DNA from: a virus | Strand: one strand, 5' to 3' | DNA length: 64,000 nucleotides | Virus record (IMG/VR): IMGVR_UViG_3300025426_000014 | Shown here: in pieces, positions 21,415 to 50,462 of the stretch | Numbering within the stretch: position 1 is the first letter of the stretch | How the letters are laid out: the number at the start of each line of letters is the position of its first letter | Notes under the pieces: generated by a model | Told to the model about the DNA's origin: nothing | The model's database searches: none | Seen by the model: the letters and a program-made list of their open reading frames with translations, nothing else | Program-made: the position numbers and the translations under genes

Positions 21415-21422
21415 GATGATAT

Positions 21423-22744: not shown

Positions 22745-22752
22745 ATATTTCC

Positions 22753-23418: not shown

Positions 23419-23742
23419 TTAAGGTTTACGCTCGATATCGGACTCTTCGCAACGAGTTCCGTATTGTATTTCAACAATCTTTAAGGGGTTATCAGTGTTG
23501 TTGATCAACTGATGCCATTCGCCCACAAGTATAGTTTTGCTTTGTTGTTCTTTAAGGGTTGTTCTACCAGGATTCCAATCTATAGTAGCAGTGCCTTCAC
23601 TGACAATCCAGTATTCATTACGATGTTCGTGTCGTTGCATACTCAACTGTTGTCCCGGCATAACAGTTAATTCTTTAACTTTCATACCCGGTACTTCGTG
23701 TAATACTTGATAGTAGCCCCACGGGCGATTTGTTTTTGTCAT
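23419..23742 (-). CDS. Cupin, mannose-6-phosphate isomerase type II C-terminal-like
   Basis: RPWGYY, VKEL.V.PG..LS.QRH.HR.EYW, IVEIQYG...E.DIER. Confidence 0.88.
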   Translation of the reverse strand: MTKTNRPWGYYQVLHEVPGMKVKELTVMPGQQLSMQRHEHRNEYWIVSEGTATIDWNPGRTTLKEQQSKTILVGEWHQLINNTDNPLKIVEIQYGTRCEESDIERKP

Positions 23743-24290
23743 TTTTCACCTATAATCATAAAGCGTGTAAAACTCCAATTCGGATATACAAACGCTTTTT
23801 CACCACTATACATCAGCTGTCGAACTGGGTACATTTTTACAAAATCTTCAAGACAACTCGAATGAACATGATGGTCTTCATGAGGCATATTGTTACCTTG
23901 TAGAACAACTGCGGTTCCTTTGGGAATGTTATTCCACCAATCCATGTTATCAAAATGTTCTGTACTGGTGTTTATGATCATATCCATATTACGCAAAGAT
24001 GTTATTGATTTATTACAATCTTCTGTAAAGGCTTTAAACTGCCAATCCTGCCATACCCAGTTTTCATTTATCATATCTGCCACAGGTTGGCACGTTGGAT
24101 CCATATCTAAACTAACACAGCGATCTATTTGTATGTTGCCACGAACTTTGAGTAGGAAATGTGTTATACCATACCAACCGCCGTAGATACCTAAGTAATC
24201 TATTTGTGTGTAAATTTTTTCTAGTTCTTCACACAACCAAATCTTACTGCCTATTTGTCCACTGCTAAATGCGTCTGGATTAATTTCCAT
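23739..24290 (-). CDS. Putative class I SAM-dependent methyltransferase
   Basis: GGWYG glycine loop, acidic LDMD, INTSTEH. Confidence 0.6.
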   Translation of the reverse strand: MEINPDAFSSGQIGSKIWLCEELEKIYTQIDYLGIYGGWYGITHFLLKVRGNIQIDRCVSLDMDPTCQPVADMINENWVWQDWQFKAFTEDCNKSITSLRNMDMIINTSTEHFDNMDWWNNIPKGTAVVLQGNNMPHEDHHVHSSCLEDFVKMYPVRQLMYSGEKAFVYPNWSFTRFMIIGEK

Positions 24291-24826
24291 TATACGTAGT
24301 ATAGTTCCGGGTATTCGATTAATACATGCACACCGCCCTGTTTATAGGCTTTCTTATAGGTATCTACAATCTTGGCATGATCTTTTAAATCATAAAACTT
24401 AATGTTTGGGCACATAGATTTGAACTCTTTTAAATAGTTGCCTTTATGCTGATGACCAGGATCTAATGGCTTGTCTGAACCTTTGCCCAATCTAATGATC
24501 ATGTTGGCCTGTTGACCAGTCATTAGTTCATACTTGTCTACATGGTTAATCAGTTGATTAGCAGCCAATATAATAAAGTCCCAACGAGGATAGAATGTAA
24601 CCACGGTCTTACCAGTCATAGCAATACCTAAACTCATGCCCATTTGTGTTTCTTCCATGACGGGTAGCTCAATCATTTTATCTTTGGACACATTACCCAA
24701 TGTAGTACTCATAGGATTACCAGCATAAACAATCTGTTGTCCTATAAACACTGTGTTGTTTTGCTCTCCCAAATAGGTCATTGCCTGTGTTAAAGCATCT
24801 TTATACGGTTGCGTTGTTGTTGTCAT
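24290..24826 (-). CDS. ThDP enzyme, E1-beta/transketolase pyrimidine-binding domain only
   Basis: ALTQAM, VFIGQ, IELPVMEETQMGMSLGIA, DF...A.NQLINH..K, GHQH; lacks the C-terminal domain. Confidence 0.85.
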   Translation of the reverse strand: MTTTTQPYKDALTQAMTYLGEQNNTVFIGQQIVYAGNPMSTTLGNVSKDKMIELPVMEETQMGMSLGIAMTGKTVVTFYPRWDFIILAANQLINHVDKYELMTGQQANMIIRLGKGSDKPLDPGHQHKGNYLKEFKSMCPNIKFYDLKDHAKIVDTYKKAYKQGGVHVLIEYPELYYV

Positions 24827-25682
24827 TTTCTATTCGTCTAATAATGTTTTGAGCCATAACTCTGTGGCAAGTTAAACTTGGATGATGATCTTTAGGAGTT
24901 ACTTCAAACGAAAACTCATCCCATTTAACTGTGAGTTCTGGATTATAACCTTTACTGTGCATGGCACCAGGCCACATTAAATCTGTAATGCTTTTATAGT
25001 TTTTACCATTGTAGTTAAATGTAACAAATCTTTGAGATAACCAAAGATCCTGCTCAATCAAGGGAATATACTCTTCAGGCCAAGTAAAGATTAGGGTCTT
25101 TATTCCTTTACTTTCACAAGTTTGCAGGAACTGTTTGACATTGTCAAGACCCTTTTGAATGTATTGTGCTAAAAACTGATCTAATGACAAACCTTGATCT
25201 TCTAAATACTTTAGGAAATGCTGTTTATGTTCGTCTTTATTAATTTCGTGAAAAGGTAAGTAATGCGTTTTTCCGCTGTGTTCAAATACAACATGATCCC
25301 GCTGCCATTGAGTTAGTTGAAATACAACATGGGACACTTCTTCGTATTCAATAAATGGAATACTATGTCCACTATACCAAGCACCTTCAGATCTATCAGT
25401 AAAACACTTGGTCCACCATGTAACAGCACCTTCATTAGATCCACCATTTTGAGGATGAACAAACTCAAAACTATTAAAATGGTCAGCAACTATTCTAGGA
25501 TAGCGAACGCTTTCCATAAACTTGATGTGTGCATGTTTAACTAGTTTAGGATCGTATTGATCCGGAGGAGGTTCTCCTATAGTGGGCAGGTTACTATAAT
25601 AATATAGACCCTGTCCCCACGTAAAGGAACATCCAGCAAATATCATGCCTTTGGTAATTCTACAGTTTTCTTTACTTTGCAT
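24801..25682 (-). CDS. SGNH/GDSL-like hydrolase or acyltransferase
   Basis: FAGCSFTWGQG (block I), NGGSN, DHHPS (block V). Confidence 0.7.
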   Translation of the reverse strand: MQSKENCRITKGMIFAGCSFTWGQGLYYYSNLPTIGEPPPDQYDPKLVKHAHIKFMESVRYPRIVADHFNSFEFVHPQNGGSNEGAVTWWTKCFTDRSEGAWYSGHSIPFIEYEEVSHVVFQLTQWQRDHVVFEHSGKTHYLPFHEINKDEHKQHFLKYLEDQGLSLDQFLAQYIQKGLDNVKQFLQTCESKGIKTLIFTWPEEYIPLIEQDLWLSQRFVTFNYNGKNYKSITDLMWPGAMHSKGYNPELTVKWDEFSFEVTPKDHHPSLTCHRVMAQNIIRRIENDNNNATV

Positions 25683-26613
25683 TATCTTGTTCTATTCTTT
25701 TAATAATGTTGTCAGCCACAACTCGATGACACTTTAAACTAGGATGGTCATCCAAAGTTGGGACTTCGAAATTATCAGTATCAGTGGACAATTTAAACCC
25801 GGGTACAGTCATTAAATCATCCATAGATAGATAGTTCTTACCTTCGTAGTCGAAAGTAATAAATCTTTCAGAAAACCAACTATCCTTTTTAATATATTCT
25901 AAAAAATCATTAGGCCAAGTTAGAATATAAGTTTTAATATTTTTATCTTCTAGTTGTTGTAATAAAGTTTTTACCGATGCTAAACTGTTTAGCAATACTT
26001 CTTCATTGTGTTGACCCACGGTTTTATTGTTCAAATTTAACCAATCCAAATATAAATCTCTAAAAGGTCCATCTGGATTCCATAGTAAACTAAGAGTAAT
26101 TTCTTTCTGTATATTGCCTACCTTCAACTGTACCGTATCTCGGTTATAAGGAGTTAGTTGAAGAATAAAGTGTGATATATCATTAGTATCAATATATTCT
26201 ATCTTATCAAACCATTTTGGATGTGATTCAAAAGTTTCTTTTCCGGAGTCTTTAAAATAATCATAGGCATAGGCATGAACATATTTTGTCGGTTTTCCTG
26301 GATTAAGTAAAACAGAGTTTTGTCTACTAAAACATTCAGACCAATACTCATACATTTTTTTATTACTGCCACCATTTTTGGCGTGTACTATTTCATAGGT
26401 ATTAAAATGATTGGCAACAAGTCTAGGATATCGTACAGCATCTTTAAAAGCAACATGTGCCCTGGTTATAAAAATAGGGTTAAAATTATAAGGCTTGTCT
26501 TCTATAACAGTTTTAGAGTTAGTATAATAATGTAGATTTTGTCCCCATGTAAAGGAACATCCTGCAAATACCATGCCCTTTATAGGAGTTGCATCTGGTT
26601 TATATTTCATCAT
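25672..26613 (-). CDS. SGNH/GDSL-like hydrolase or acyltransferase (paralog)
   Basis: FAGCSFTWGQ, NGGSN, DDHPS; clear paralog of 24801 and 27304. Confidence 0.7.
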   Translation of the reverse strand: MMKYKPDATPIKGMVFAGCSFTWGQNLHYYTNSKTVIEDKPYNFNPIFITRAHVAFKDAVRYPRLVANHFNTYEIVHAKNGGSNKKMYEYWSECFSRQNSVLLNPGKPTKYVHAYAYDYFKDSGKETFESHPKWFDKIEYIDTNDISHFILQLTPYNRDTVQLKVGNIQKEITLSLLWNPDGPFRDLYLDWLNLNNKTVGQHNEEVLLNSLASVKTLLQQLEDKNIKTYILTWPNDFLEYIKKDSWFSERFITFDYEGKNYLSMDDLMTVPGFKLSTDTDNFEVPTLDDHPSLKCHRVVADNIIKRIEQDNAK

Positions 26614-27311
26614 ATATTAAAATGTTGCATTATTTCAATAGCCAGCGCCCTAGCTGATTCTAACCCAGGATGTTTTTGATTATGAAATAACGAAGTATCC
26701 TGTGTTGCTGCAATAATTTCTTCTTTAATAGACAACTCTCGTTGTATGATATCCTCGGATATATCGGGCCAATCCCACAAAGAACCTTTACCTCTTTCTA
26801 AAAATTCAAATGCTTGACTAGCGGGCACATCTTTTCCAGTTATTTTAGAACGCAGATTATCTACTGTATAATCTGCCCAATCTAACATATGCTTTTTAGA
26901 TTTGTGTAGGGGGGCATGGCCGCCCATTATAGCCCATTTGACAGTAGGATGATTATTTTTAATATCAGTGGCCCATTGATACATTCTTTCGGCAGTAAGA
27001 TCTATTACTGCATCATATCCTAATGTAGAAAACTTTTCTACTTCTGGAGGGGTAAAATCTCTAATCAACTCAGTATGAAACCAAATAACGATATCTGGAT
27101 ACATTGTGGTATCTTTAGTGGCATATAACAATGTTTCTAGTTGTTGAAACTGATAGTTATTACTATTACCTCCCCAAGATTTATTAAATGTAGGATGTCC
27201 TTTCTTGAGAAACTGATATTCAAACCACTCTGCAATAGAGGTATCTCCTCGTGGCCAAAGATGACAAGGAACGGTTCCCCATGTATCCCCTATTATAACT
27301 ATATTAGCCAT
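26610..27311 (-). CDS. SGNH-like protein (divergent)
   Basis: IIGDTWG, GGNSN, KHPG; Thr at the nucleophile position. Confidence 0.55.
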   Translation of the reverse strand: MANIVIIGDTWGTVPCHLWPRGDTSIAEWFEYQFLKKGHPTFNKSWGGNSNNYQFQQLETLLYATKDTTMYPDIVIWFHTELIRDFTPPEVEKFSTLGYDAVIDLTAERMYQWATDIKNNHPTVKWAIMGGHAPLHKSKKHMLDWADYTVDNLRSKITGKDVPASQAFEFLERGKGSLWDWPDISEDIIQRELSIKEEIIAATQDTSLFHNQKHPGLESARALAIEIMQHFNI

Positions 27312-28251
27312 TTTTATCCTTTTCTATTTTTTTAATAATGCTGTCTGCAAATAAACGATGGCAATGTAGACTCGGATGACTATCCACTGGTGGAGTTTCA
27401 AAATGTTCATAATCACCTAATATCTCTAACCCAGGGTTTTTTTGAAACATATCTTCGATACATTCGTAGGTAGAATTGTTATATTCAAATGTTATAAGTT
27501 TATCTGCCAAAAGTTCATCTTGTTTGATTAACGGTACATAGTGGGGAGACCATGTCATGATGTAGGTCTTTATTCCTTTTTCTTCTAAACCTTGTAAAAA
27601 GGTTTTAACATTGTTAAAATCGTTGGCAATAAATTCATTGTGGAACTGAAAAAGATCCATATTTTTATTCAACAACCATTCAGAAAATAAATCTTTATAG
27701 TGTTGACTAGGATTCCAAACATCAAATAGTCTCAACGGACGACCTACTCTATAGATAAAATCAAAGTTTGTAATACGACTTCTCGGCCAATAGGTCAGTT
27801 GAAAAACTACATGCGAAATCTCTTGGTGTTTGGTTTTTGTTAGTTGATCAAACCAAGTGGGATAATCTTGAGCAATTTGAACATCTGTCTTACCTGCAAT
27901 ATCCGGAGCTAGATGATCGTATAAAGTATTCCTTATAAAGGATCCATGATTATTATCATCGTTAAGGCTTTCTGTCCAATACTCAACCATCAAGTCATTT
28001 GCACCACCGTTACTGGGATGAACTATTTCAAAAGAATCAAAATGATCAGCAACTAGTCTAGGAAATCTATGCCTGTTTTTAAACTTTAGATTAGCAGTAG
28101 TATAAAGCCAAGGGGAATATCCCTGTTCTTGTTCTTTATAAGTTTCTAACACAGGAGAAAAACTATACCACCAAAGTCCTTGACCCCAGGTAAAAGAATC
28201 ACCTATAAACAACATGCCCTTTTTAGATTCAGGGTTTCCACGATATTTCAT
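27304..28251 (-). CDS. SGNH/GDSL-like hydrolase or acyltransferase (paralog)
   Basis: FIGDSFTWGQG, NGGAN, DSHPS. Confidence 0.7.
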   Translation of the reverse strand: MKYRGNPESKKGMLFIGDSFTWGQGLWWYSFSPVLETYKEQEQGYSPWLYTTANLKFKNRHRFPRLVADHFDSFEIVHPSNGGANDLMVEYWTESLNDDNNHGSFIRNTLYDHLAPDIAGKTDVQIAQDYPTWFDQLTKTKHQEISHVVFQLTYWPRSRITNFDFIYRVGRPLRLFDVWNPSQHYKDLFSEWLLNKNMDLFQFHNEFIANDFNNVKTFLQGLEEKGIKTYIMTWSPHYVPLIKQDELLADKLITFEYNNSTYECIEDMFQKNPGLEILGDYEHFETPPVDSHPSLHCHRLFADSIIKKIEKDKNG

Positions 28252-28682
28252 TTTTTCTTTTTCTTAGGTTCGCTGGATTCGCCCCAACTGATTTCCCAAT
28301 CTTTAAAGTCAGCGGCAAGACAATCCACTTTATAATCCAATCTGCCACCTACTACTTCTTGTATTTTGTTTTTAGCAGTATTACGAATACCATTTAATCC
28401 GTGTGTAAGTGCTAGATTACCTTCTTTAAGTCCGCGACGGTAAGCAGATTCATTGTGCCAAATATGTAAATTCATTTGACTCACTACCACAATAGCACGA
28501 ATAGTTTCTGCTGTGATCTCAGCATCTGCTTCATTGAGTATAAGCTGAATATCGTGTACAATATCCGCAATCTCCTGCGAATATTCTGCCTTGTGTTCTG
28601 TAATGAAAACTTCTTTTAGTTGAACAATGCTCAATCTATCAATAAGGTCGCCTAGTGTATGCAAGTATCTTCTCTCAGTCAT
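28248..28682 (-). CDS. DUF4254-like helical protein
   Basis: GDLIDRLSIVQLK motif and N..IWH.E...R...N..RN pattern. Confidence 0.55.
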   Translation of the reverse strand: MTERRYLHTLGDLIDRLSIVQLKEVFITEHKAEYSQEIADIVHDIQLILNEADAEITAETIRAIVVVSQMNLHIWHNESAYRRGLKEGNLALTHGLNGIRNTAKNKIQEVVGGRLDYKVDCLAADFKDWEISWGESSEPKKKKK

Positions 28683-29614
28683 AAGTTTGTAAAGTTCCTG
28701 TTATTGTTAGTTATTACAATCGGATATGCGGCCATTAACTGTTTGATTCCGTAATCCAAATCATATTGAGGTTTCCATCCCAGTGCTTCAATCTTGTCAT
28801 TAGACACAATATAGTTACGTTTATCAAAGTCTTCCTTAAAGTCGTCTTGTTTGATAACCAGTTTGGGAATGTACTCTTTGATCTTTTCGGCTAACTCTAG
28901 TTTACTTAGATTGGCAGTACTTAGCCCTACATTGTATGCTTGACCGCTAGACTTTTCATAGTTTTCAATCATAAACTCAAAAGCCCGAGCAATGTCTTGT
29001 ACATGAATATAGTTACGTTTAAAATGTGCTTCAAATAACACAAGATACCCGTCTACCATACTTTTGTAAACAAAATCGTTTACCAACAAGTCTTGGCGCA
29101 TACGGGGACTTACACCAAACACTGTTGCCAAGCGCATGGCAATACCACCTGCGGCAATCGCAGCATCCTCGGCCTTACACTTTGTTTCAGCATACAGACT
29201 CAAAGGTTTAAATGGGCTTTCTTCTGTGATGATTTGATCCGATGATCCATATTGACTATTTGTATTGGGCATAATCAACATTTGATCTTTATGTAGGTAT
29301 TTGGCAATCGCTTCTACATGTAAAAAGTTAACATCAATGGCTAGTTGTGGATTAGCCTTACAGGCAGGCATACCTACAATAGCAGCCAAGGGGATAATGA
29401 CTTGATGCTGTTGAGTTTGATCTAATAATAGTTCGGTATCACGTACATCGCCTTGTACAAACTTAAAATGTTCGTGCTTAAACAAATGAAATAAAGATGC
29501 TTGTTTATATAACAGATTATCAAATACTGTTACTGCATAGCCTTTATTCAATAGATGTTCTGCTAAGGTGGATCCTAGATATCCAGCCCCGCCTGTGATC
29601 AAAACAGTTTTCAC
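28679..29614 (-). CDS. NAD-dependent nucleotide-sugar epimerase/dehydratase (extended SDR)
   Basis: ITGGAGYLGS, LAAIVG, YAETK, RLATVFG.SPRMR.DL.VN. Confidence 0.9.
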   Translation of the reverse strand: MKTVLITGGAGYLGSTLAEHLLNKGYAVTVFDNLLYKQASLFHLFKHEHFKFVQGDVRDTELLLDQTQQHQVIIPLAAIVGMPACKANPQLAIDVNFLHVEAIAKYLHKDQMLIMPNTNSQYGSSDQIITEESPFKPLSLYAETKCKAEDAAIAAGGIAMRLATVFGVSPRMRQDLLVNDFVYKSMVDGYLVLFEAHFKRNYIHVQDIARAFEFMIENYEKSSGQAYNVGLSTANLSKLELAEKIKEYIPKLVIKQDDFKEDFDKRNYIVSNDKIEALGWKPQYDLDYGIKQLMAAYPIVITNNNRNFTNL

Positions 29615-30579
29615 TGGAACTCATCCTTGTTGGCAAGATACCAATCGTGGGCTTTCTTAAGTCCAACTTCCAACGGAGTTGTAGCTTCCCAACCTAACTG
29701 TGCTTTGATCTTGTTAGAGTCAATGCGGCGTGTGGGAATCATACTGGGCTTGCCAGTAACATATTCAATAGGGTTAGTATTGTTAACAAGATTTTTCATA
29801 ATAGACAGAACATCATTAACAGAGTAAACATTGTTACAGCCTACATTGTAAACATCATAAGTCTCTTGTTTTTCCATTACTAACTGTACTGCTTCAACAA
29901 AGTCATCAATATATAACAAGTCACGTAGTTCTGTACCATCGCCCCATACTGGGATAGGATTCATATTGTCTGCAACCTTACGAATAGTTGCTGGTGTAAC
30001 GTGGCACTTGGCAAAGTCATACTTGTCGTGAGGGCCGTACAAGTTAGCAGGACGAATAACCACTGTGGTCATTGGTGTGGGCAAATACTTGGCGTAAAGT
30101 TCGCATTGAACTTCTGCATAACGTTTCATCCAACCCACTGGGAAGTAAACAGGATATGGAGCATCAAACAAGAAGTCTGTTTCAACCACCGGTTCGTCGC
30201 CTTTTGGTGGATATACTGTGTTGCTACTGATAAAAATATACTTAGTAACCTTGTTACGATAAGCACTATCGATTAGGAAGTTATTCATAGCCACATTAGG
30301 TGTAACGTGTGCAAGTGGGGATTGAACTGTGTCCACAGCATTACTGGTACTTGCGGCAGCATGAATAACCACATCACAGTCTTTGGTAACATCTAGGCAA
30401 GTGTGGTAATCTGTTAGGTCACCATTTACATATTCAACACCATTGTGCATATCACGCGGCATACGAGTATGTAAATGTACACGAATATCGGTATAGCCAT
30501 CAGCTACCAGTTTGTTGGTTAGATTTTGTCCGACTAGGCCAGATCCACCTGTGATTAAAATTTTAGAAGTCTTTTCCAT
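29611..30579 (-). CDS. GDP-L-fucose synthase-like epimerase/reductase
   Basis: ITGGSGLVG, SSNTVYP, RPANLYGPHD, HVTPA.IRK, VWGDG...RD.LY; YxxxK replaced by VGWMK. Confidence 0.82.
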   Translation of the reverse strand: MEKTSKILITGGSGLVGQNLTNKLVADGYTDIRVHLHTRMPRDMHNGVEYVNGDLTDYHTCLDVTKDCDVVIHAAASTSNAVDTVQSPLAHVTPNVAMNNFLIDSAYRNKVTKYIFISSNTVYPPKGDEPVVETDFLFDAPYPVYFPVGWMKRYAEVQCELYAKYLPTPMTTVVIRPANLYGPHDKYDFAKCHVTPATIRKVADNMNPIPVWGDGTELRDLLYIDDFVEAVQLVMEKQETYDVYNVGCNNVYSVNDVLSIMKNLVNNTNPIEYVTGKPSMIPTRRIDSNKIKAQLGWEATTPLEVGLKKAHDWYLANKDEFQ

Positions 30580-30590
30580 ATAGTCCTTTT

Positions 30591-31286: not shown

Positions 31287-31322
31287 ATTATATAGTTTAA
31301 TGTGTTAGAACAAGAATGTCAA

Positions 31323-33637: not shown

Positions 33638-33641
33638 ATGA

Positions 33642-42250: not shown

Positions 42251-43297
42251 TTAATCTACCTTCTTTTTAGTTCTAGTTTTTTTAGGTTTAACAGGTTCTT
42301 CGGCAACAACTGGTATAACAGGAATAACTTTGCGATCGGGGTTATGTTTGGGAATAATAATATCTGTACCGCAATGGCAGTGTTCTTTTTCGCAGGTAAT
42401 CACTTTAGGACCAATCTCAGCAATATCTCTTAGAATATTACCGCCATAACCGCCTTCACCACAACTAGCTAGTCCAATATCTCCCATAGGATTGATAAAC
42501 AAGCTATCGCCTACATTACAGCGCCAGCCTTTGAAAAAGTTCTGTCTATTAATAATAACATCATTGCTATTAGTATACAACTCTTCTCCATCCTCATGAA
42601 TAGAATAACTTACACAGTTATCCGGAGTAGTGGGTTTAGGTAGTGTAAACTTCATATCCACCGAATGTGTTTTTAAGAAATCTACTTTTTTCTTGCTACG
42701 ATACTTCCAAGGACTAGCATAGATTGTCATCTCATCAAACAACGGAGTCCATTCAATAAAGTAGTTAGGCATAACTTTTTTCAAGTGTTCGCCGTATTCA
42801 ACAACTTCCCAAAAGCGTTCATCATGCATCAACATCTTTGTGGCAAGATAGTTTACCTTGTCACATAAGAAGATACTATTCTTTTCGTATTCTTCTTTGT
42901 TACTAAACTCCACATGATAACTAGCAACAATATCATCAAACAAATGATAATGTTTCTTCCACCAAGCCAATGGGCGACTTAGATTAGTGTTTACTGCTAA
43001 TGTACAGTTAGGCAGTTCACGCTTCAACCATTCGCATACAGGAATAAAGTTACGCCATGCTGTAGGTTCTCCTCCACTAAAGAAGAACTTAAAGTGTTCA
43101 TAACCTTCTTCCTTGTAACGATTAATAATAGTTTCAAGGTTAGTTAGGTACTTGGTCAAGTTACCATTATTGGTTTCAGTACCACTCCAGTTGCCTGGAT
43201 TACAATAACTACATTTAAAGTTACAGTAGTTGTTAACTTGCCAAGTGACTGCAAGGTATTTTTGTTTCCCTACAATCTCGATTATTTCTTTGCCCAT
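42251..43297 (-). CDS. Radical SAM enzyme with C-terminal twitch/SPASM Cys cluster
   Basis: CNFKCSYC, SGGEP, NTN; C..G..LFINP.G....C...C....CHC. Confidence 0.88.
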   Translation of the reverse strand: MGKEIIEIVGKQKYLAVTWQVNNYCNFKCSYCNPGNWSGTETNNGNLTKYLTNLETIINRYKEEGYEHFKFFFSGGEPTAWRNFIPVCEWLKRELPNCTLAVNTNLSRPLAWWKKHYHLFDDIVASYHVEFSNKEEYEKNSIFLCDKVNYLATKMLMHDERFWEVVEYGEHLKKVMPNYFIEWTPLFDEMTIYASPWKYRSKKKVDFLKTHSVDMKFTLPKPTTPDNCVSYSIHEDGEELYTNSNDVIINRQNFFKGWRCNVGDSLFINPMGDIGLASCGEGGYGGNILRDIAEIGPKVITCEKEHCHCGTDIIIPKHNPDRKVIPVIPVVAEEPVKPKKTRTKKKVD

Positions 43298-44577
43298 TGA
43301 TAGACCTCTTTTAATTCTGGAACAACGTCCAATAACTTTTCTTTTCTATTAACATCCATTTCATTATTATGGAAAATGAATTCTAATATACCGCCTTTGT
43401 CCTCATGACTGACATGATCACCGTATCTATGACTGCCTGCTTTTAAGTTCTGTTGTATAAGTTTAAACCCATTTGCAATGCCGGGCAAGTGTTCATACTT
43501 CCTAACATGCATTTCATACGTTTTGATTAACTTTTCTTTAATATGGTCTGGCAATATAAAGATATTGGCCCACCAAGGATGTGTAAGCAAGTTAAATCTA
43601 GGATCAACTTTTTTACTAATCAACTCATTGTCATATAGATAATCAAAGAACTCAGGGAAGGACCAAACATTCCATGTACTGATCGTAGGACTAATCTGGA
43701 ACTCTGCATGTGGAACTTCTTTCTTTAGTTTTTTCATGTTCTTAACAATGGTATCCCATTTGGTACCTTTGCGTACAAGTTCAGCAACATCGCCACTGGC
43801 ATCGAGACTTGCCCAAATCTTGATGTTGGGAAACTTCTTCCACAACTCAATCAAGTTTCTATCTTTGTATTTCAATACACTAAAGTTAGTAGTATATGTT
43901 AGTTCAACCTTATGGGTCAGACCTTTTTCAATCCAATAATCTAAACATTCATAATGCTCGGGTGTAATAATAGCTTCTCCACCTGCAAAGTAAACTTCTT
44001 CAACGTGATCGAGATAGGGTTTTAGTTTAGTCATAAACACTTGGTCTTCGTTGGTATTAACAACAAATGATTTTAATCCAAAGTATTTTTCTAACTTATC
44101 ATGCCCTTTAGTCTTAGCGTATTCTTCTGCCCATTGACTACTACAAGCAGGTCCACATGTACGACATTTCATGTTACATAGGTTACTAAAACGAATGTCC
44201 ATATACTTCATTTTAAACTCGTCAATGCTGCCGTCTTTCTTAGTCTTACTAATAAGATCAACATAGTCAAGTCCCCTACGGGTATTATGACTATTACGCA
44301 TAGTCCAAGCACCTAGTTGTTCTACGCTGGTGCAACGGAAACAAGTTTCAAGCGGCTGATCTTTTAACATAGCCACACGCATCTTTTTGTACTCGTCACT
44401 ATTCATCATTTGAATAATAGATTCTTCTGATTTAATCTTAGACACTGGCTTAGAGCTATCTGCCATACAGCAGGGCATAACATCCCCATTAGGGAACGAA
44501 TGGAAGTGTATCCAAGGTAGAACACAAAAGTTCTTGCCTTCTTTGATCAGTTTAGTTACATGTGCTTTTGTTACCAT
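43282..44577 (-). CDS. N-terminal twitch-domain radical SAM enzyme
   Basis: FCVLPW.H...NG.V.PCC...C..C; SNLCNMKCRTC; FAGGE. Confidence 0.9.
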   Translation of the reverse strand: MVTKAHVTKLIKEGKNFCVLPWIHFHSFPNGDVMPCCMADSSKPVSKIKSEESIIQMMNSDEYKKMRVAMLKDQPLETCFRCTSVEQLGAWTMRNSHNTRRGLDYVDLISKTKKDGSIDEFKMKYMDIRFSNLCNMKCRTCGPACSSQWAEEYAKTKGHDKLEKYFGLKSFVVNTNEDQVFMTKLKPYLDHVEEVYFAGGEAIITPEHYECLDYWIEKGLTHKVELTYTTNFSVLKYKDRNLIELWKKFPNIKIWASLDASGDVAELVRKGTKWDTIVKNMKKLKKEVPHAEFQISPTISTWNVWSFPEFFDYLYDNELISKKVDPRFNLLTHPWWANIFILPDHIKEKLIKTYEMHVRKYEHLPGIANGFKLIQQNLKAGSHRYGDHVSHEDKGGILEFIFHNNEMDVNRKEKLLDVVPELKEVYQWAKK

Positions 44578-44578
44578 A

Positions 44579-45823
44579 TTAATCCATCATTGAAGCAAGT
44601 TCGGGAAATACTTTGGTAAAGTCTTCGCCGCGGACTTTGTCTAATACTGCAATCTCTTCTTGGAACTTGGCTTTATTATCTGCCCAGGTATGTTGAGCAT
44701 TTGCCCAAGCCATAGTAGATTCTACCACAGGCAGTTTATAATCGAGGAATCCCTTGCTTTGCATAAACTTTACCAACGATTTAATCTTAAATGTAGCTTC
44801 ACGTTTAAGTTTAGCTGGCATTACTTGAGATGTAAAATGTGTCGGTGATGTCATATTATAGATACCAAATGTTGTGTAACTCCAAGAGGTATAGATTTTC
44901 TTTTCAATCAAGTAATGATAGAATTCTAACATAGTATGATAGTTAAACACACTACATACAGTATTTAGACCAAATCTAACATTATCCATTGAGCTGAGTT
45001 TGATAAGGTTCTTTTCTACCTGTCCCCAATCAGTGCCATGTCTAATATACTCAGCACGTTCACCGTGATGATCAATACTGGCTTCTAGAGAAATAGGTTT
45101 GGTAAAATGACTCCATAACTCAATAATATCCTTGTTCTTAAACTTCAAGTTACTGACATTTGAGTTGTATACAAGATTAATATCTGTACGACCTTGTTTA
45201 ATCATTTCTTCTAGAACAATATAATGTTCTTCGGTAATCAACGGTTCACCACCAGCAAAATACGCATACTCCATATGTGGAATATGTTCAATGACTTCTT
45301 CCAATAGTTGAGGAGTATTGTTCTTAGGGTGAATAGTAGCCCAAGGTACTTTACGTTTGATATCTTCCTGTTCCCATAATGTACTAAATGCCGCATTACA
45401 AGTTCTACATTTAAAGTTACATACGTTATTAAAACGCACATCAAAATATCGCATTTTAAAGTCAGCAAGAGTGCCATCTTCTAGCGTATTAGCCATAGCT
45501 TCATCAAAGTGATGTTTAAATCGTTTAGCAAACTGATCTTTACTAGAACTAATACCCTGCGCCTGATGTTCATGACAACCAGCACATGCGGGATTAAAAC
45601 GTTCGTTCAGCATATCCAAACGTAGTTGTTTCATCTTATCACCATTGATGATAGACTCAATAGTTTGTTCTGTTGTATTCCCCACAACATCCCTAGCAAT
45701 ACAACAGGCTGCTGCTTCTCCTACTGGAGATGTGTATAGGTGAATCCAGGGAGACATACAAAATGTCTTGCTTTCATTTAAAAGAAAGTCTTTATTTACA
45801 GTTACAGTTTTTTGTTTTTTCAC
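44579..45823 (-). CDS. N-terminal twitch-domain radical SAM enzyme
   Basis: FCMSPW.H...CC...CAGC; NNVCNFKCRTC; FAGGEP; AEYIRHGTDW. Confidence 0.9.
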   Translation of the reverse strand: MKKQKTVTVNKDFLLNESKTFCMSPWIHLYTSPVGEAAACCIARDVVGNTTEQTIESIINGDKMKQLRLDMLNERFNPACAGCHEHQAQGISSSKDQFAKRFKHHFDEAMANTLEDGTLADFKMRYFDVRFNNVCNFKCRTCNAAFSTLWEQEDIKRKVPWATIHPKNNTPQLLEEVIEHIPHMEYAYFAGGEPLITEEHYIVLEEMIKQGRTDINLVYNSNVSNLKFKNKDIIELWSHFTKPISLEASIDHHGERAEYIRHGTDWGQVEKNLIKLSSMDNVRFGLNTVCSVFNYHTMLEFYHYLIEKKIYTSWSYTTFGIYNMTSPTHFTSQVMPAKLKREATFKIKSLVKFMQSKGFLDYKLPVVESTMAWANAQHTWADNKAKFQEEIAVLDKVRGEDFTKVFPELASMMD

Positions 45824-47073
45824 TTTGGTTCCATCAATGGGTATAGTTCTGGGAATGTTCTAACAAATGATTCCCCTCGTACTCTGTCACGCTCTTTAGT
45901 ATGATGTATGAATTCTTTTCTAGCCGTTTTCCAGTTATCTTCACTGTTAACAAAAGGAATAGCCAAATCTAAGTATTGTTTTACAATATGTCCATTTTGC
46001 AAGGTTGGAGCATATTTCATTATCTTTTCTGTTCCAATATCTTTTAAATGTCTAGGCAATGCAGTAGCAGTATAATATGGCGGATGTGTAGTCATAGACA
46101 AATAAGTTTGATAATCCTCTTGTCTAATCAAATCTTTATCTAACATATAACTATAGAAATCAGTTATTGTTAGATAGTTAAACACACTCAATACTGTGGC
46201 TACTCCTAACTTTACATTATCTAGTTTTCTAAAGTTAATCAAGTTACTTTCAACTACGCCCCATTCGGTTCCATGTCTAATGTATTCAGCACGTTCTCCG
46301 TAATGGTCAACGCTTACCTGTAGCTCAATCTTTTTAAAGTTCTTCCAAAGATCTAATAAGTCTTTATTCTTATAGTTAATAGTACTACCATTTGTGTTAT
46401 AACGCAACATTACATCTGTTCGACCCCGACGAATCATTTCTTCAAGGATAATGTAATGTTCGTCCATGATCAATGGTTCGCCACCAGCAAAGTAAAGAAT
46501 GTCTGCGTGATCTAAATGTGTTTTTACTTCTTCAATCAGTGTGCCTTTATGATTGTCTGCATGGATAGTGACCCAGTCTTCCAGGCCCAGTTTCTTTTGT
46601 TCAGCGGCCCATTTACTACTAAAGTCAGCACCACAAGTTCTGCAAGCAAAGTTACAGATATTACTGAATCTAATATCAATAAGATGTAGTTTAAACTCAT
46701 CCAAAGATCCATCTTCATTGGTATTAGGTACTAACTCATCAAACCGTTTTCCAAAATGATCTTTGCCAAATGTTCTGTAAGTGTGAGGACTGATTTTTTC
46801 ACGGTCGTAACACATTTTACAGCAGTCCGAAGGAACATCATTTAACATATCTAATCTCAGCTTCTTAGCAGCATCACTGTTAAAGATTTCCTTTAGGGAG
46901 TTTTCTCTAACATTCCCTAACTGTAAAGATCTATCAGTGGTACAGCATGGAAACACTTCACCGCCGGGACTTACAAAAAGATGCATCCAAGGAAGCATAC
47001 AAAATGTCTTACTGTCCTCCATTAGATAATCTTTGTTAATCGGTATTACTTTATTCATATTCACTACATTCAT
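45820..47073 (-). CDS. N-terminal twitch-domain radical SAM enzyme
   Basis: FCMLPW.H...PCC...CKMC; SNICNFACRTC; FAGGEP; AEYIRHGTEW. Confidence 0.9.
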   Translation of the reverse strand: MNVVNMNKVIPINKDYLMEDSKTFCMLPWMHLFVSPGGEVFPCCTTDRSLQLGNVRENSLKEIFNSDAAKKLRLDMLNDVPSDCCKMCYDREKISPHTYRTFGKDHFGKRFDELVPNTNEDGSLDEFKLHLIDIRFSNICNFACRTCGADFSSKWAAEQKKLGLEDWVTIHADNHKGTLIEEVKTHLDHADILYFAGGEPLIMDEHYIILEEMIRRGRTDVMLRYNTNGSTINYKNKDLLDLWKNFKKIELQVSVDHYGERAEYIRHGTEWGVVESNLINFRKLDNVKLGVATVLSVFNYLTITDFYSYMLDKDLIRQEDYQTYLSMTTHPPYYTATALPRHLKDIGTEKIMKYAPTLQNGHIVKQYLDLAIPFVNSEDNWKTARKEFIHHTKERDRVRGESFVRTFPELYPLMEPK

Positions 47074-48433
47074 TATAAAAATCTGTCATCTCGGGGAACG
47101 TTTCCAAAAAGTTTGTGTCCCTGCGTTCATCTAACGCATTAAACCAGTTATAAAAATCCTTGCGACCTTCTGCGACGCGAGCATCATCATATGTTGTTGA
47201 TTCCATATAATCAACGACACGTCTAAACTTTTCATATTCAAAAGTTGTAAACTTTGCCAAATCGTTTTCGTCTGTGTTGTCTTTCATAAACTTTAACGAC
47301 TCGTGCATGTAAGGCAAAAACTCTGTCTTGGGCAATATATTCATATCATACTGCAATGGTTCTTTGAGATAGGGTGTATCAAATCTAACCATTTGCGGTT
47401 GATCAGTTCTATTGTACTGATTATACTTGGCACGCCATTCTAAGATCTTTTCCAATAGGCTCTTGAATGTTGTCACACACAAGATATTAAACGTAATCAT
47501 AAAACTGATCGGCTGTCCAGTACCTATTAGGTACGCATCGAGGTTGCGTTCCCAAATGGACAAATCTAATCCTGTTCGAATATATTCTGCTCGTGGGCCC
47601 CATGTATCAATGCTAGTAAACAACTTAAATCTACGGATTCCTTTGTTGTCTGTAACATAGTTTACACTATCAATCATCTTATCTACCAATGCTGGTTTGA
47701 CACCAATATTGCTATTGATATTTAATTCTAATTGAGGCATGGGGTCATTTTTCAGGCTATCAAACAGTTTCCAAGTACTGGTATGCATCAATGGTTCCCC
47801 ACCAGTAACTCGTAGAATGTTCAGTGTCTTACTCATTTCAGGCCACCAACGCCACCAAGCATCCACAAATGGATTACTTTCTTCACGCTCGTAGATCTTT
47901 AGGTAATCGATATCACAACGATGATTGCTCACTGTTTCTACAGGACCGTGCTGTTTAATCTCGTTGTAGAAACGACTGCTGGCTTTGGGGTGGCAATAGC
48001 CGCATTTGAAGTTACATTCATTACCGAACGATACTTCAATATATTCTGGGTTGATGTTCTTATTGTATGAACCTGTAGTTGCTTCTTCCCACCGAGAAGG
48101 AGTATAGATGGATGTTGTTCTAATGTGGCGGTCACTGATGTAACCTTCGCCCATATTTTCAATATTCCAGCAGTATTGGCAACCTTTGGTTTGTACGCCC
48201 AATAACATATCCCTACGCTCTAACTTTTTAATAGGAGTATTGTGCAGGGCGCTGGGATTACGTCTAATCTCTTCTTTGTTTATCTTGTGTGGAGGCGGGT
48301 GATAACAACTGTGTGTTTCACCTGTTTGTAGGTACAAGGTAGTATGATGCCATTTAGCCAAACAAAATGTTGGACTAACTTTGTTCATAATGGGTATGAG
48401 TTTTCTAACTTTCTTCTCGTCCGAATCTGACAT
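47051..48433 (-). CDS. N-terminal twitch-like radical SAM enzyme
   Basis: FCLAKW...HSCYHP...CQYCW; NECNFKCGYC; TGGEP; AEYIR.GL. Confidence 0.88.
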   Translation of the reverse strand: MSDSDEKKVRKLIPIMNKVSPTFCLAKWHHTTLYLQTGETHSCYHPPPHKINKEEIRRNPSALHNTPIKKLERRDMLLGVQTKGCQYCWNIENMGEGYISDRHIRTTSIYTPSRWEEATTGSYNKNINPEYIEVSFGNECNFKCGYCHPKASSRFYNEIKQHGPVETVSNHRCDIDYLKIYEREESNPFVDAWWRWWPEMSKTLNILRVTGGEPLMHTSTWKLFDSLKNDPMPQLELNINSNIGVKPALVDKMIDSVNYVTDNKGIRRFKLFTSIDTWGPRAEYIRTGLDLSIWERNLDAYLIGTGQPISFMITFNILCVTTFKSLLEKILEWRAKYNQYNRTDQPQMVRFDTPYLKEPLQYDMNILPKTEFLPYMHESLKFMKDNTDENDLAKFTTFEYEKFRRVVDYMESTTYDDARVAEGRKDFYNWFNALDERRDTNFLETFPEMTDFYNECSEYE

Positions 48434-50414
48434 TATATTCCTTTAATAACCATTCTTCGTCATTGATATTCTTTAGTTGATCAGGACGAGCATTATCTAT
48501 AAACTCTCTAGCATGTTGAGCACCTAGCTGTGCATACTCACCAAATGGTTTATTTGAACCTTTTGTAAGCCAATCATTGTATCTTTCTTCATGTTCAGAG
48601 TTATCTGAATCATAGACCATGTTATAGCATAACTTAACACATTCTCTAAAGGCACTGCGCCAAGTAGCATACTCACTGGTATTAAAACGGGTTGTGTTAC
48701 TAACTTCTTCTATGACTTTGAGTTTTTTAGTCACAGTAGTAGAAAAGTCTAATGTAGTCCAAGTTTTACGATGTAATACATAAGCACGTGGTAATAGTTT
48801 AACACCGCCATTGCCATAAGTCAAACCATTGATAGGATTACGACTGTGCCAAATATAAGCACAGTCTCTATCAAAGATGCCTGGCTGGAAGTTAAACGAC
48901 CAATCGTCTTCCAAATATGCATCACCGTCTACTACAAAGAACATGTCTGTTTCACATAGTTCGGCGGCGGCTTTATGTGCAGCCATGATACCTTTGACTC
49001 CATCTACTCGTTGTGCATATGGAGCAAACTCTAAAACTCTTTGCCAGTTTTCTTCTGCATTGTCTTCGTTGTAACTGATAAACACCACATCGAGTGGTTC
49101 AAACAATGGAGTAACAATACCCATTTCCTTTGTACCTGCGGGATTATCAACTAGACTCATGGTCAATGCCCATACATTGTCTTGATTCCATTCTGGATCA
49201 AGATACCAAACATGCTTGAAGTCTTTGTCGTGATAAGGAATGTTGTAGTCAACTTCCATTTCCAATCTAGGCAACTTGGGATTCTTTTGAATGTTGACTG
49301 CGGGAAATACTGTGCCCACATACTTGTCGCCTTTGGGTTTATCCACATAGGAGCCAGTAACAGCAACTATGTCATAGCCTGTACTAGTAACTGTATCCAG
49401 TTTCCAACAATGCCTATATTCAAACTCTTTATGATGTGCTACATGTTCTTCTATGCCTTCAAACTGCATTCCTTCTAGATCAGGATGTAGTTCGTAGGTC
49501 ATTATGGGACTAACATAGTCAACAATAATCCGTTGTTTGGTTTTGGCTGATGCTTTTATCTTAAATGCCCAAATCTCTTTTTCTTCAGTCTTTTTATGTT
49601 TGTTGTCTAACATCCAAACATGTTCGTAATTTAAGTTATCCCACGACACAGAATAACTAACATCATAGTCTAACTTTGGAAGTTTAGGATTGTATTCGAT
49701 TATGAGTTCAGGACTCACCGTACCCACAACTTTGGCAGGCATGGGCTTTCTATATTCGGGAGTAAACTTTACGGCCCAAACATCCCCGTCTGTATTATAT
49801 TCTGGATCTAGATTGTAAACACATTCATAGGCCAAATCCCAATAGGGAGGGCATAGTTCATCTATGTTTAGATTGAAGTCTGGAAGGTCTGGGTTAAATG
49901 ACACTTTGACATTTGGGGTTAGATCCTCCATTACATGTGTGCCTTTAACTGCTATACCGGAAGGTATGCATTTGTACACCCATACACGATCTTCTAGTGG
50001 ATTGAACCTAGTATCCATATACCAAACTAGTTCTCGTTGCCTGTGCCATGTACCAGGATCGTAGGTGTTTACTGGATCATCGACAAAAGTCATCATGCGA
50101 TCTAGATCTGGATTCTTACGCCAAATCAGCTTGGGCTTTTCCAATATGATTTCTTCATAGCCATCACTGGGTTTCCAATAGCTATTAAAACATTTGGCAA
50201 TCCACTCTCCGTCCATGCCCCAAACTATACATTTGTCAGATGCAGGAACATTATGAATATAGTGATGTAGATCCGGATCTACTAGCCAAGGGTTGATAAC
50301 TAGAAAACGCTCTTCATCGCATAGTTGTTGTAGCTCAAGGTCATAGGCAACAGGGTCGCCTTGCCATTTTATCTTTTTAACCAGTTCGGGATCTACTCTG
50401 TAAATGTCTGCCAT
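48405..50414 (-). CDS. GT-A glycosyltransferase with ~5 N-terminal ~67-aa repeats
   Basis: C-terminal DVVFISYNE, RVDGVKG...AH..AA, FFVVDGD (DxD), NPINGLTYGNGGVKL, WRSAFRECVKL; repeats NP.LP...VW.LD...VWA......G.V.P. Confidence 0.72.
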   Translation of the reverse strand: MADIYRVDPELVKKIKWQGDPVAYDLELQQLCDEERFLVINPWLVDPDLHHYIHNVPASDKCIVWGMDGEWIAKCFNSYWKPSDGYEEIILEKPKLIWRKNPDLDRMMTFVDDPVNTYDPGTWHRQRELVWYMDTRFNPLEDRVWVYKCIPSGIAVKGTHVMEDLTPNVKVSFNPDLPDFNLNIDELCPPYWDLAYECVYNLDPEYNTDGDVWAVKFTPEYRKPMPAKVVGTVSPELIIEYNPKLPKLDYDVSYSVSWDNLNYEHVWMLDNKHKKTEEKEIWAFKIKASAKTKQRIIVDYVSPIMTYELHPDLEGMQFEGIEEHVAHHKEFEYRHCWKLDTVTSTGYDIVAVTGSYVDKPKGDKYVGTVFPAVNIQKNPKLPRLEMEVDYNIPYHDKDFKHVWYLDPEWNQDNVWALTMSLVDNPAGTKEMGIVTPLFEPLDVVFISYNEDNAEENWQRVLEFAPYAQRVDGVKGIMAAHKAAAELCETDMFFVVDGDAYLEDDWSFNFQPGIFDRDCAYIWHSRNPINGLTYGNGGVKLLPRAYVLHRKTWTTLDFSTTVTKKLKVIEEVSNTTRFNTSEYATWRSAFRECVKLCYNMVYDSDNSEHEERYNDWLTKGSNKPFGEYAQLGAQHAREFIDNARPDQLKNINDEEWLLKEYNVRFGREES

Positions 50415-50462
50415 ATACTAGTAATTATACTAGCATAAAATAGAAAGTCAAGTTATAGATTA

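Follow-up and report, generated by a model that had tools for sequence, protein, structure and literature searches.

A phage island of sugar-nucleotide enzymes, glycosyltransferases and radical SAM proteins with a possible role in glycan tailoring

Gene content of the island

The viral record IMGVR_UViG_3300025426_000014 from IMG/VR, of which a stretch of 64,000 nucleotides (hereafter called the window) was analysed as a whole, carries at positions 23419-50414 a block of 26 open reading frames (ORFs), hereafter called the island. It encodes sugar-nucleotide enzymes, glycosyltransferases (GTs), the two halves of a thiamine diphosphate (ThDP) enzyme, 2-oxoglutarate (2OG)-Fe(II) oxygenases and six radical S-adenosylmethionine (SAM) enzymes. 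All ORFs are on the minus strand, from g01 (50414) down to g26 (23419), and 18 of the 25 junctions overlap, by 1-43 nt, with 36 nt as the largest gap (Table 1). This agrees with a preliminary description of the sequence, which had counted about 26 co-oriented, mostly overlapping genes and read them as a pathway for the tailoring and transfer of sugars.

The window is DNA of a large myophage. Its T4-type clamp loader shares 57% identity with the one from the Pseudomonas jumbo phage PA5oct, and there are genes for baseplate proteins, for collagen-like and further fibre proteins, for a DNA ligase and for a cell-wall hydrolase. The island is flanked on both sides by fibre-like proteins with approximately 25% Ser+Thr, and its G+C content is 34-39%, compared with 40-44% in the adjoining fibre region. 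The same DNA was present in 24 runs of freshwater metagenomes, dated 2017, and the source sample may be among these; there was no RNA among the sequencing runs listed for it. A nucleotide search with the island against 50,697 phage records gave zero matches.

Ten of the island proteins had no match in Pfam, NCBIfam or PHROGs. Transmembrane segments were predicted in none of the 26 proteins, and Pfam and transmembrane scans of the island found no priming polyprenyl-phosphate transferase, flippase, polymerase, ligase or transporter.

Table 1 Features of the island and nearby sites. Nucleoside diphosphate is abbreviated NDP, phosphomannose isomerase PMI, short-chain dehydrogenase/reductase SDR and iron-sulfur Fe-S
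Feature	Position	Strand	Assignment	Basis
g01	48405..50414	-	about 435 aa of repeats, then C-terminal GT-A domain	predicted model and Foldseek
g02	47051..48433	-	N-terminal-twitch radical SAM, B/D-type	NF033640 297 bits; CxxxCxxC seen
g03	45820..47073	-	N-terminal-twitch radical SAM, A-type	NF033640 381 bits
g04	44579..45823	-	N-terminal-twitch radical SAM, A-type	NF033640 355 bits; 44% identical to g03
g05	43282..44577	-	N-terminal-twitch radical SAM, A-type	NF033640 367 bits
g06	42251..43297	-	radical SAM, C-terminal Cys-rich tail	PF04055 1.7e-6 (below cut-off); radical SAM PHROGs
g07	40010..42250	-	B12-binding radical SAM, class B methylase-like	PF02310 1e-9; PF04055 7e-16
g08	37569..40013	-	DUF6071-like (SGNH-like?) N-terminal domain, Pro-rich linker, predicted GT-B C-terminal domain	paralogy to g11/g12
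g09	37033..37572	-	RmlC-like NDP-4-keto-sugar 3,5-epimerase cupin	PF00908 1.7e-29; TIGR01221 99 bits (cut-off 156)
g10	36410..37075	-	ThDP diphosphate-binding (E1-alpha-like) half, 221 aa	PF00676 (E1_dh) 1.5e-13; GD...N motif
g11	35041..36438	-	predicted GT-B fold glycosyltransferase, GT10-like at best	model of residues 200-465
g12	33642..35060	-	predicted GT-B fold glycosyltransferase	paralogue of g11, 38% identity
g13	32651..33637	-	extended SDR, GDP-fucose-synthase-like	PF01370 7e-34; NF047922 133 bits (below cut-off)
g14	31977..32654	-	2OG-Fe(II) oxygenase	PF13640 5e-11
g15	31323..31976	-	2OG-Fe(II) oxygenase, 34% identical to g14	PF13640 2.4e-9
g16	30591..31286	-	class I methyltransferase, NPPN motif (amino-methylase type)	PDB 9l4q 5e-11; PrmC-like 7e-8
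g17	29611..30579	-	extended SDR, GDP-fucose-synthase-like	PF01370 1e-45; PDB 1bws 3e-30
g18	28679..29614	-	extended SDR, candidate NDP-sugar C4-dehydrogenase	PDB 6vo6 7e-98
g19	28248..28682	-	144 aa	weak DUF4254 match
g20	27304..28251	-	SGNH-like candidate	G(D/C)S...NGG...D-x-H-P-S pattern
g21	26610..27311	-	GDT...GGN...H-P pattern	no family match
g22	25672..26613	-	g20 paralogue	38% identity
g23	24801..25682	-	g20 paralogue	38% identity
g24	24290..24826	-	ThDP pyrimidine-binding (E1-beta-like) half, 178 aa	PF02779 (Transket_pyr) 5.7e-8
g25	23739..24290	-	possible class I methyltransferase	Rossmann-like motif; Atlas lead
g26	23419..23742	-	stand-alone PMI-type cupin	PF01050 7e-29; TIGR01479 positions 358-460
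IscU and two A-type Fe-S carriers	21085..22101	-		PF01592 9e-50; PF01521 1e-20, 3e-18
sigma-70-like promoter	50424..50451	-	TTGACT-16-TATAAT	11/12 consensus positions; ends 9 nt before g01 start
second sigma-70-like site	31294..31322	-	TTGACA-17-TAAACT, in the sole sizeable internal gap, before g16	consensus match only

The PMI-type cupin, the RmlC protein and the three extended SDRs named in the preliminary description were borne out by their Pfam scores, the SDRs g13, g17 and g18 matching PF01370 with E-values of 1e-33 to 1e-45. The cupin g26 resembles the C-terminal (PMI) domain of GMP/PMI. The match of g18 to PDB entry 6vo6 extends over residues 2-308 of 311 with 331 bits, and the next chain reached 78 bits. 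The entry is titled only 'putative sugar-nucleotide epimerase/dehydratase'; it is presumed here to be Cj1427, the Campylobacter GDP-heptose C4-dehydrogenase that is recycled by 2-oxoglutarate. Judging from this match, g18 probably makes a 4-keto intermediate, and if 6vo6 is Cj1427 a 4,6-dehydratase would be unnecessary.

No nucleotidyltransferase or 4,6-dehydratase gave a family match above the curated cut-off across the island, in line with what had been described, and a nucleotidyltransferase was not found in five large related phage records either. The activated sugar is therefore probably made by the host. The earlier proposal that precursors come from the host or from elsewhere in the genome thus stands for the activated sugar, whereas the 4-keto step is probably supplied within the island by g18.

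In an alignment with the GDP-fucose synthase of E. coli, g17 keeps Lys140 and His179 and has Val at the position of the catalytic Tyr136 and Asn at that of Cys109. The g13 protein has no Tyr at the YxxxK position (Pro/His context; the motif was read by eye), and a GW(T/M)KR stretch is common to both proteins. Both are well conserved across phages despite the missing catalytic Tyr.

Subunits of ThDP enzymes resembling E1-alpha and E1-beta had been proposed for g10 and g24, respectively, and Pfam identified both (PF00676 and PF02779). Their scores are below the pyruvate dehydrogenase E1 equivalogs (85 bits versus 394 for g10 and 38 bits versus 321 for g24), and g24 is without a Transketolase_C domain. 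The two genes share a strand in all of 64 viral loci, with a median distance of 6.6 kb. In the cyanophages P-TIM68 (L177:12067-13212) and S-SM2 (L178:12001-13209), the g10-like and g24-like domains form one ORF of approximately 390 amino acids, annotated as 'transketolase central region', which has 39-46% identity to the island halves. This fusion indicates that g10 and g24 form one enzyme. It lies in clusters with phosphoheptose isomerase (GmhA), a sugar kinase, nucleotidyltransferases, epimerases and GT11, and so ties the island to known cyanomyophage sugar clusters.

Glycosyltransferases, radical SAM enzymes and other tailoring proteins

Three GT10-like transferases and one GT-A transferase had been proposed. 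The folds were upheld by structure prediction, GT-B for three proteins and GT-A for one, and the assignment to family GT10 was not upheld by sequence. The objection that the GT-like proteins might lack GT folds does not apply.

The g01 protein had no Pfam match. Its last 235 residues (435-669) were predicted to adopt a GT-A fold, with a predicted local distance difference test (pLDDT) score of 88. The model had 37 PDB matches at E <= 1e-3, almost all of them GT-A glycosyltransferases among the matches listed. Top in Foldseek were SunS/ThuS (4e-5) and PBCV-1 A64R (2e-4), with WrtF, ArnC and RmlT also present, and in BFVD viral GT-A enzymes were found, including a Che8 glycosyltransferase (1.4e-4). 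Sequence and profile searches of the PDB with the GT-A domain gave nothing meaningful. By inspection, a DGD motif follows the third strand, with Asp56 nearly invariant and Thr55 invariant in the alignment (A3).

Residues 1-435 of g01 consist of about six repeats of approximately 65 amino acids with recurring W-x-L-D ... V-W-A-x-K and no family match. The repeats are common to the closest relatives only (L007, L008). This region could be the acceptor-binding part.

The g08, g11 and g12 proteins had no Pfam or NCBIfam match even at E-values up to 10, and a profile of 24 sequences of the g11 family found no PDB chain. Their common C-terminal domain, modelled after the three proteins had been aligned with 21 viral-contig relatives, was predicted to be the half of a GT-B fold that binds the nucleotide (pLDDT 81). 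In VIA, a search independent of Foldseek, the top matches of the model were nearly all GT-B proteins, among them the fucosyltransferases plant FUT11 (Z 8.7), H. pylori FucT (8.5) and FUT9 (8.0), which were tied over Z 8.0-8.8 with EXT1, T4 beta-glucosyltransferase (8.6), T4 alpha-glucosyltransferase (8.2) and glycogen synthase. The Foldseek E-values to GT10 were 3e-3 or weaker. In the family alignment Arg59, Glu147 and Glu160-Lys161 are invariant; the Arg and Glu-Lys may correspond to the donor-binding residues of GT10, as in the H. pylori enzyme. The GT-B fold of the domain can be regarded as established from the predicted model, and kinship with GT10 is possible.

The T4 enzymes among these matches raise the question of whether the sugar is attached to bases of the phage DNA, as a hypermodification against host nucleases. 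GT-A and GT-B enzymes are known to put diverse glycans on phage DNA (bioRxiv 10.1101/2023.12.21.572611), the window holds replication genes (ligase and clamp loader), and the early-type promoter-like site before g01 would suit such a role. At a distance of a few kb from their radical SAM arrays, four of five large related phages also have a thymidylate-synthase-family gene coupled to genes for an SDR and a DegT protein. However, such a gene is found within 10 kb of g10 in 0 of 80 syntenic loci, the ThyS protein of one of these phages (G404) was unmatched among the ORFs of the window, and the thymidylate synthase genes of the relatives score approximately 350 bits, like ordinary ThyA. Furthermore, g14 and g15 match 2OG families of the prolyl-hydroxylase type, not Tet_JBP, and a Tet/JBP search of the five related records was negative, but its positive control also failed to score. 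Attachment to DNA is thus considered very improbable. In G404 (85047-88078; L094:15048-18078), and likewise in G405-G407, the thymidylate-synthase-family gene overlaps the SDR gene by 4 nt and the SDR gene overlaps the DegT gene; this set may belong to nucleotide metabolism or may hint at base modification.

One B12-dependent radical SAM protein and five radical SAM proteins with twitch or SPASM domains had been listed. The former is g07, confirmed by PF02310 and PF04055. Four of the latter, g02-g05, are members of NF033640 (N_Twi_rSAM, curated cut-off 170 bits; hereafter N-twitch), and the fifth, g06, is a radical SAM protein which with 37 bits is not a member of this family and whose C-terminal Cys cluster was seen by eye only. 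In g03-g05, Pfam places SPASM at residues 18-88, ahead of Radical_SAM at approximately 130-310 (25-88 and 135-285, respectively, in g03, for which more than 5000 homologues were found in one search). Mis-called gene borders or a recoded stop were considered as the cause of this order and ruled out, because the neighbouring genes are in different frames with overlaps of 4-29 nt and the whole g02-g05 proteins also fit NF033640 from end to end.

In an N-twitch alignment of 26 sequences, Cys25, Cys43, Cys88, Cys140, Cys144 and Cys147 are invariant, and the N-terminal part aligns with the twitch domain of BtrN (E 2.4e-6). The viral paralogues fall into about six conserved types. The nearest group of g02 is D, with 37.5% identity, and the island set consists of one B/D-type protein (g02) and a lineage-specific triplication of the A-type (g03-g05). 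The closest PDB sequence to the N-twitch profile (A7) was 8vpo (1e-12), and anSME (3e-11), SkfB (3.5e-9), viperins, BlsE and BtrN were also matched; profile matches of this kind cannot separate peptide substrates from sugar or nucleotide substrates. The g07 protein carries a C-terminal extension of approximately 300 amino acids without family assignment, and its best NCBIfam matches were a C-methyltransferase family of ribosomally synthesized and post-translationally modified peptides (RiPPs) and the PhpK family, both below cut-off.

The matches to anSME and SkfB, and those of g07 to RiPP C-methyltransferases, would suit a reading in which the radical SAM proteins, the B12 methylase and the 2OG oxygenases act on protein or peptide, either fibre or RiPP-like, by epimerization, C-methylation, cross-linking or hydroxylation, the sugars serving in a final glycosylation only. 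The top structural matches of the GT-A domain, SunS and ThuS, are peptide S-glycosyltransferases, and g14 weakly matches a peptide-maturation 2OG oxygenase. All those scores are, however, far under the family cut-offs, the N-twitch profile also matches the sugar- or nucleotide-acting viperin, BlsE and BtrN, the constant companions of N-twitch genes are sugar enzymes, and no conserved small gene resembling a precursor was found, the one short ORF of this kind looking like a carbamoyltransferase tail (see below). Modification of protein or peptide by these enzymes is therefore regarded as improbable.

Genes for IscU and two A-type Fe-S carriers lie 1.3 kb downstream of the island and are likely to supply clusters for its six radical SAM enzymes. 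Nishimura et al. (PMC5332604) noted marine T4-like genomes that combine genes for Fe-S assembly with as many as 12 for radical SAM proteins, and literature searches on the N-twitch family in phages yielded nothing beyond this passing mention.

The two proposed 2OG-Fe(II) oxygenases, g14 and g15, were both recognized (PF13640). Of the two proposed methyltransferases, g16, by family search a small-domain methyltransferase, was substantiated by its PDB match to 9l4q, while g25 had no Pfam or PDB match and rests on a motif and an Atlas lead; in one viral contig g25 is fused to a GT-A protein (L065:184-3039).

Five SGNH domains had also been proposed, in g20-g23 and at the N-terminus of g08. These were not established, as g20-g23 had no Pfam or PDB matches, their motifs are non-canonical and the relatives of the g08 N-terminal domain carry DUF6071 (PF19547); five SGNH domains are a reasonable guess. 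In the g20 family, Gly17 and Ser19 (G-x-S of block I) are invariant and the NGG stretch is nearly so, but there is no recognizable GxND block and the C-terminal pair is D-x-H, compared with the canonical DxxH. A profile of 31 sequences built for the g20, g22 and g23 proteins and another of 26 sequences likewise gave no Pfam or PDB match, and g20 had an Atlas score of 0.96 to a viral cluster auto-named SGNH/GDSL. DUF6071 was detected in 17 of 59 members of the g08 N-terminal family and Lipase_GDSL in one (E 0.0077). The g20 family matched this family weakly over blocks I-II (E 0.002, probability 14%), and g21 matched neither the g20 family nor, in a profile comparison, the DUF6071 family, and was without a match in Pfam or PHROGs.

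Conservation of the island and comparison with known clusters

For synteny, 80 loci were kept of 179 IMG/VR relatives of g10 (62-78% identity). The block was syntenic in at least 60-80 contigs and is thus a unit conserved across many viruses. Its genes recur mostly in the same order: g10 in all 80 loci, g08 in 77, g11 and g12 in 76, g17 in 74, g13 in 72, g18 in 71, g09 in 68, g24 in 66, g02-g05 in 60-64, g19 in 32, g20, g22 and g23 in approximately 30, g14 and g15 in 28, and g06 and g07 in 10. When matches had to span half of the protein or more, the median identity was 79% for g19, 72% for g24, 70% for g10, 69% for g09 (67 loci by this count) and 64% for g13; the transferases, radical SAM proteins and esterase-like proteins had the lowest medians, 24-44%. 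A steady core for making the sugar, beside transferases that change fast, would be expected of phages that retain the sugar and vary its acceptor. Within the block, conservation is highest for g19 (74-89% identity in its 32 loci), which was unmatched among cultured phages. In the nearest syntenic relative, too, a fibre-like gene, g01 and the radical SAM genes follow one another in this order.

A scan with g03 found 72 viral loci, mostly with 4-7 tandem N-twitch paralogues. Their neighbours include a GT-A domain (65 loci), a carbamoyltransferase (52), tail-fibre proteins with an intramolecular chaperone (IMC) domain (49), SDRs (29), a DegT sugar aminotransferase (25) and GT-B proteins similar to g11 (21). 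In a 354-kb phage genome that is 98% complete, the N-twitch operon comes immediately after seven co-oriented fibre genes. Compared with these commoner operons, the island adds the ThDP enzyme, the RmlC-like and 6vo6-like core, the B12 methylase and the 2OG oxygenases, and is without the carbamoyltransferase, which is absent from the whole window, and the aminotransferase. In a bacterial sample of 401 genomes from one phylum, four passed the NF033640 cut-off, beside B12-dependent radical SAM and carbamoyltransferase genes. A scan of genome contigs gave the family in three contigs of metagenome-assembled genomes only; these are short, each with several copies, and are probably binned phage DNA.

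The cultured Ralstonia phage RsoM2USA (MG752970.1; 126.8-129.0 kb and 216.7-217.3 kb) encodes an N-twitch radical SAM protein, a DUF6071-like protein, a GT-A protein of the g01 type and a carbamoyltransferase tail motif, all annotated as hypothetical. It was the only cultured phage found with that combination.

A near-invariant ORF of 33-39 amino acids (MLLNTSLNI(K/R)GEP...) directly follows the carbamoyltransferase gene in viral N-twitch loci (for example L022 and L027, and also L001 in RsoM2USA). It was considered as a RiPP precursor and rejected, since it contains the motif NTSLN..GEP and since the Pfam match of the carbamoyltransferase before it breaks off approximately 13 positions ahead of the end of the model. 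By its sequence it looks like the detached C-terminal motif of a carbamoyltransferase of the NodU/CmcH type.

Pelagimyophages have a hypervariable host recognition cluster with fibres, GTs, genes of the lipopolysaccharide (LPS) type and radical SAM cassettes, for which modification of the host O-chain was proposed (Zaragoza-Solas et al. 2020, PMC7029224). The island resembles the pelagimyophage and cyanomyophage clusters in being a long block of sugar-nucleotide and GT genes near tail-fibre genes in a large aquatic myophage, and the pelagimyophage cluster in being a variable block in a T4-like phage (24-44% identity for the island GTs versus 64-79% for the core). In contrast to both, it adds six radical SAM genes, the B12 methylase among them, two 2OG oxygenases and five esterase-like domains. 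With S-SM2 and P-TIM68 it has the ThDP enzyme in common, but here the enzyme is split into two genes approximately 12 kb apart, and GmhA, sugar kinase and nucleotidyltransferase genes are lacking.

These clusters suggest that the same sugar chemistry could serve a glycan of the host envelope (O-antigen, capsule, S-layer or a lipid-linked glycan), with early expression blocking superinfection. The pelagimyophage cassettes have been read as O-chain modification (PMC7029224), the cyanophage clusters with the fused ThDP enzyme are heptose/LPS-like in their gene content, g18 resembles an enzyme of a capsule pathway, and the early-type site before g01 would suit a function that precedes virion assembly. 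This alternative is weakened by the 26 proteins without a transmembrane segment, as all membrane steps would need host enzymes, and by the tight linkage of N-twitch arrays to tail-fibre genes in relatives. An envelope acceptor is regarded as rather unlikely.

In the Campylobacter GDP-heptose scheme, the C4-dehydrogenase Cj1427 is followed by an RmlC-like C3/C5-epimerase (Cj1430) and a GDP-fucose-synthase-like C4-reductase (Cj1428) (PMC10680097; PMC7949155). The island similarly holds a 6vo6-like SDR, an RmlC-like cupin and GDP-fucose-synthase-like SDRs. It differs from the C. jejuni pathway in that g13 and g17 are without the canonical Tyr, in the added ThDP, radical SAM and B12 steps, and in the absence of heptose-synthesis genes. 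The virion glycosylation systems of PBCV-1 (A64R) and Che8 likewise have virus-borne transferases, to which g01 is related at the level of a generic GT-A match, but they are without radical SAM, B12 and ThDP enzymes.

E1-like ThDP enzymes (AviB1/AviB2 and similar) carry out two-carbon branching of deoxysugars in orthosomycin and macrolide pathways. The island likewise has E1-alpha-like and E1-beta-like proteins beside NDP-4-keto-sugar enzymes, although g10 and g24 are much shorter than E1 subunits, which have about 320-360 (alpha) and about 325 (beta) amino acids. The likeness to AviB1/B2, AviO and AviX12 drawn in the preliminary description is an analogy only. The inventory as a whole, with ThDP-dependent two-carbon branching, a B12 methylase and twitch radical SAM proteins of the BtrN kind, is like that of natural-product sugar pathways, and all enzymes are soluble, which would also suit a free small molecule (a glycoside or a cyclitol-like metabolite) made during infection. 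Four fast-evolving GT domains and the link to fibre genes in relatives instead favour a macromolecular acceptor, and no scaffold enzyme (polyketide synthase, nonribosomal peptide synthetase or cyclase) or exporter was found in the Pfam and transmembrane scans of the island. A free product is accordingly quite improbable.

Proposed pathway and its acceptor

The reading of the island as sugar tailoring followed by glycosyl transfer is supported by the sugar-nucleotide enzymes, by both GT folds, by the conserved block and by the sugar enzymes which neighbour the radical SAM family in other viruses. It appears probable that the island is a sugar or glycan pathway at all. The preferred and more specific reading, a soluble pathway for the tailoring and transfer of a nucleotide sugar with virion proteins as the target, is given a probability of roughly 45%.

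In the pathway which we infer, as to the order of steps, the substrates, the reaction of each radical SAM enzyme and the acceptor alike, the host would supply an activated sugar, probably GDP-linked and of the mannose or heptose type. Linkage to GDP is favoured because g26 is of the PMI type, g13 and g17 are nearest to GDP-fucose synthase, GT10 is among the matches of the GT-B model and g18 matches 6vo6. The C4 position would be oxidized by g18 to a 4-keto sugar, the RmlC-like g09 would epimerize C3 and/or C5, the split ThDP enzyme g10+g24 would put a two-carbon branch on the keto group and the Fcl-like SDRs g13 and g17 would complete the ring. Further edits could be made by the four N-twitch proteins, g06, g07, the two 2OG oxygenases, the methyltransferase or methyltransferases and the esterase-like proteins. 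The product would then be attached by g01 (GT-A) and by g08, g11 and g12 (GT-B) to a cytoplasmic acceptor. Fibre or other virion proteins of the phage are the favoured acceptor because N-twitch arrays adjoin fibre genes in relatives, the island has fibre-like flanks and it encodes no membrane protein.

Several points weigh against this reading. With their missing catalytic Tyr, g13 and g17 may work unlike textbook reductases, so their role as such is uncertain, and the identity of 6vo6 with Cj1427 is an assumption. From GT-A and GT-B similarity in the models, a protein acceptor cannot be told from a lipid-linked one or from DNA: the T4 DNA glucosyltransferases match the GT-B model as well as the fucosyltransferases do, and GT-A enzymes which modify phage DNA also match PBCV-1 A64R (bioRxiv 10.1101/2023.12.21.572611). 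The nearest solved relatives of the radical SAM proteins include peptide-modifying enzymes. Finally, the site before g01 appears to be an early-type, host sigma-70 promoter, compared with TAAATA-like sequences at the fibre genes, and the island may therefore not be co-expressed with virion genes.

The site before g01, a consensus match only, was the best minus-strand sigma-70 match in 36-55 kb. No Shine-Dalgarno sequence is visible for g01 and the promoter-like site is 9 nt from its ATG, so that translation of this first island gene may take place on an mRNA with little or no leader. A single copy of the T4-type late promoter TATAAATA is present in the 64 kb (21420-21427, minus strand), directly before an erpA-like gene, and not at the island. 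One occurrence compares with 8.3 ± 2.6 expected in the window, and this strong avoidance suggests that the sequence is a functional late-type signal in the phage.

After the island, at 22418-23331 (minus strand), there are genes for a protein of 108 amino acids with about four hydrophobic segments and for a SleB-type hydrolase with an N-terminal hydrophobic segment; the hydrolase gene has its own TTGACT-17-TAAACT site. The pair is possibly a lysis cassette. Flanked by the fibre genes on one side and the ligase gene on the other, an HNH endonuclease is encoded on the opposite strand (18943-19452, plus strand), with a strong terminator-like hairpin at 19456-19477, 3' of the gene.

Beyond the preferred reading of a nucleotide-sugar pathway directed at virion proteins, it is conceivable, albeit doubtful, that the N-twitch proteins are a new radical class that acts on nucleotide sugars or nascent glycans and that, together with the ThDP and B12 steps, builds a fibre sugar which affects host range or shields the virion. 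Epimerization at unactivated carbons, oxidation and C-C bond formation are possible reactions in this case. If true, this would be a widespread and previously unseen layer of phage surface chemistry, and the enzymology of the island could be categorically new.

Large aquatic phages repeatedly spend 15-30 kb on such a gene set. The conserved core of g18, g09, g10+g24, g13, g17 and g19 is small enough for reconstitution in vitro, and RsoM2USA, in which three of the families occur, is cultured and could be amenable to genetics. Learning the product of the pathway would give a chemistry to the N-twitch family, which has thousands of members and no known reaction or solved structure, would delineate a minimal ThDP enzyme for the branching of sugars and would show whether phages decorate their fibres, the host surface or DNA with custom sugars, which bears on host range, superinfection and defence evasion.

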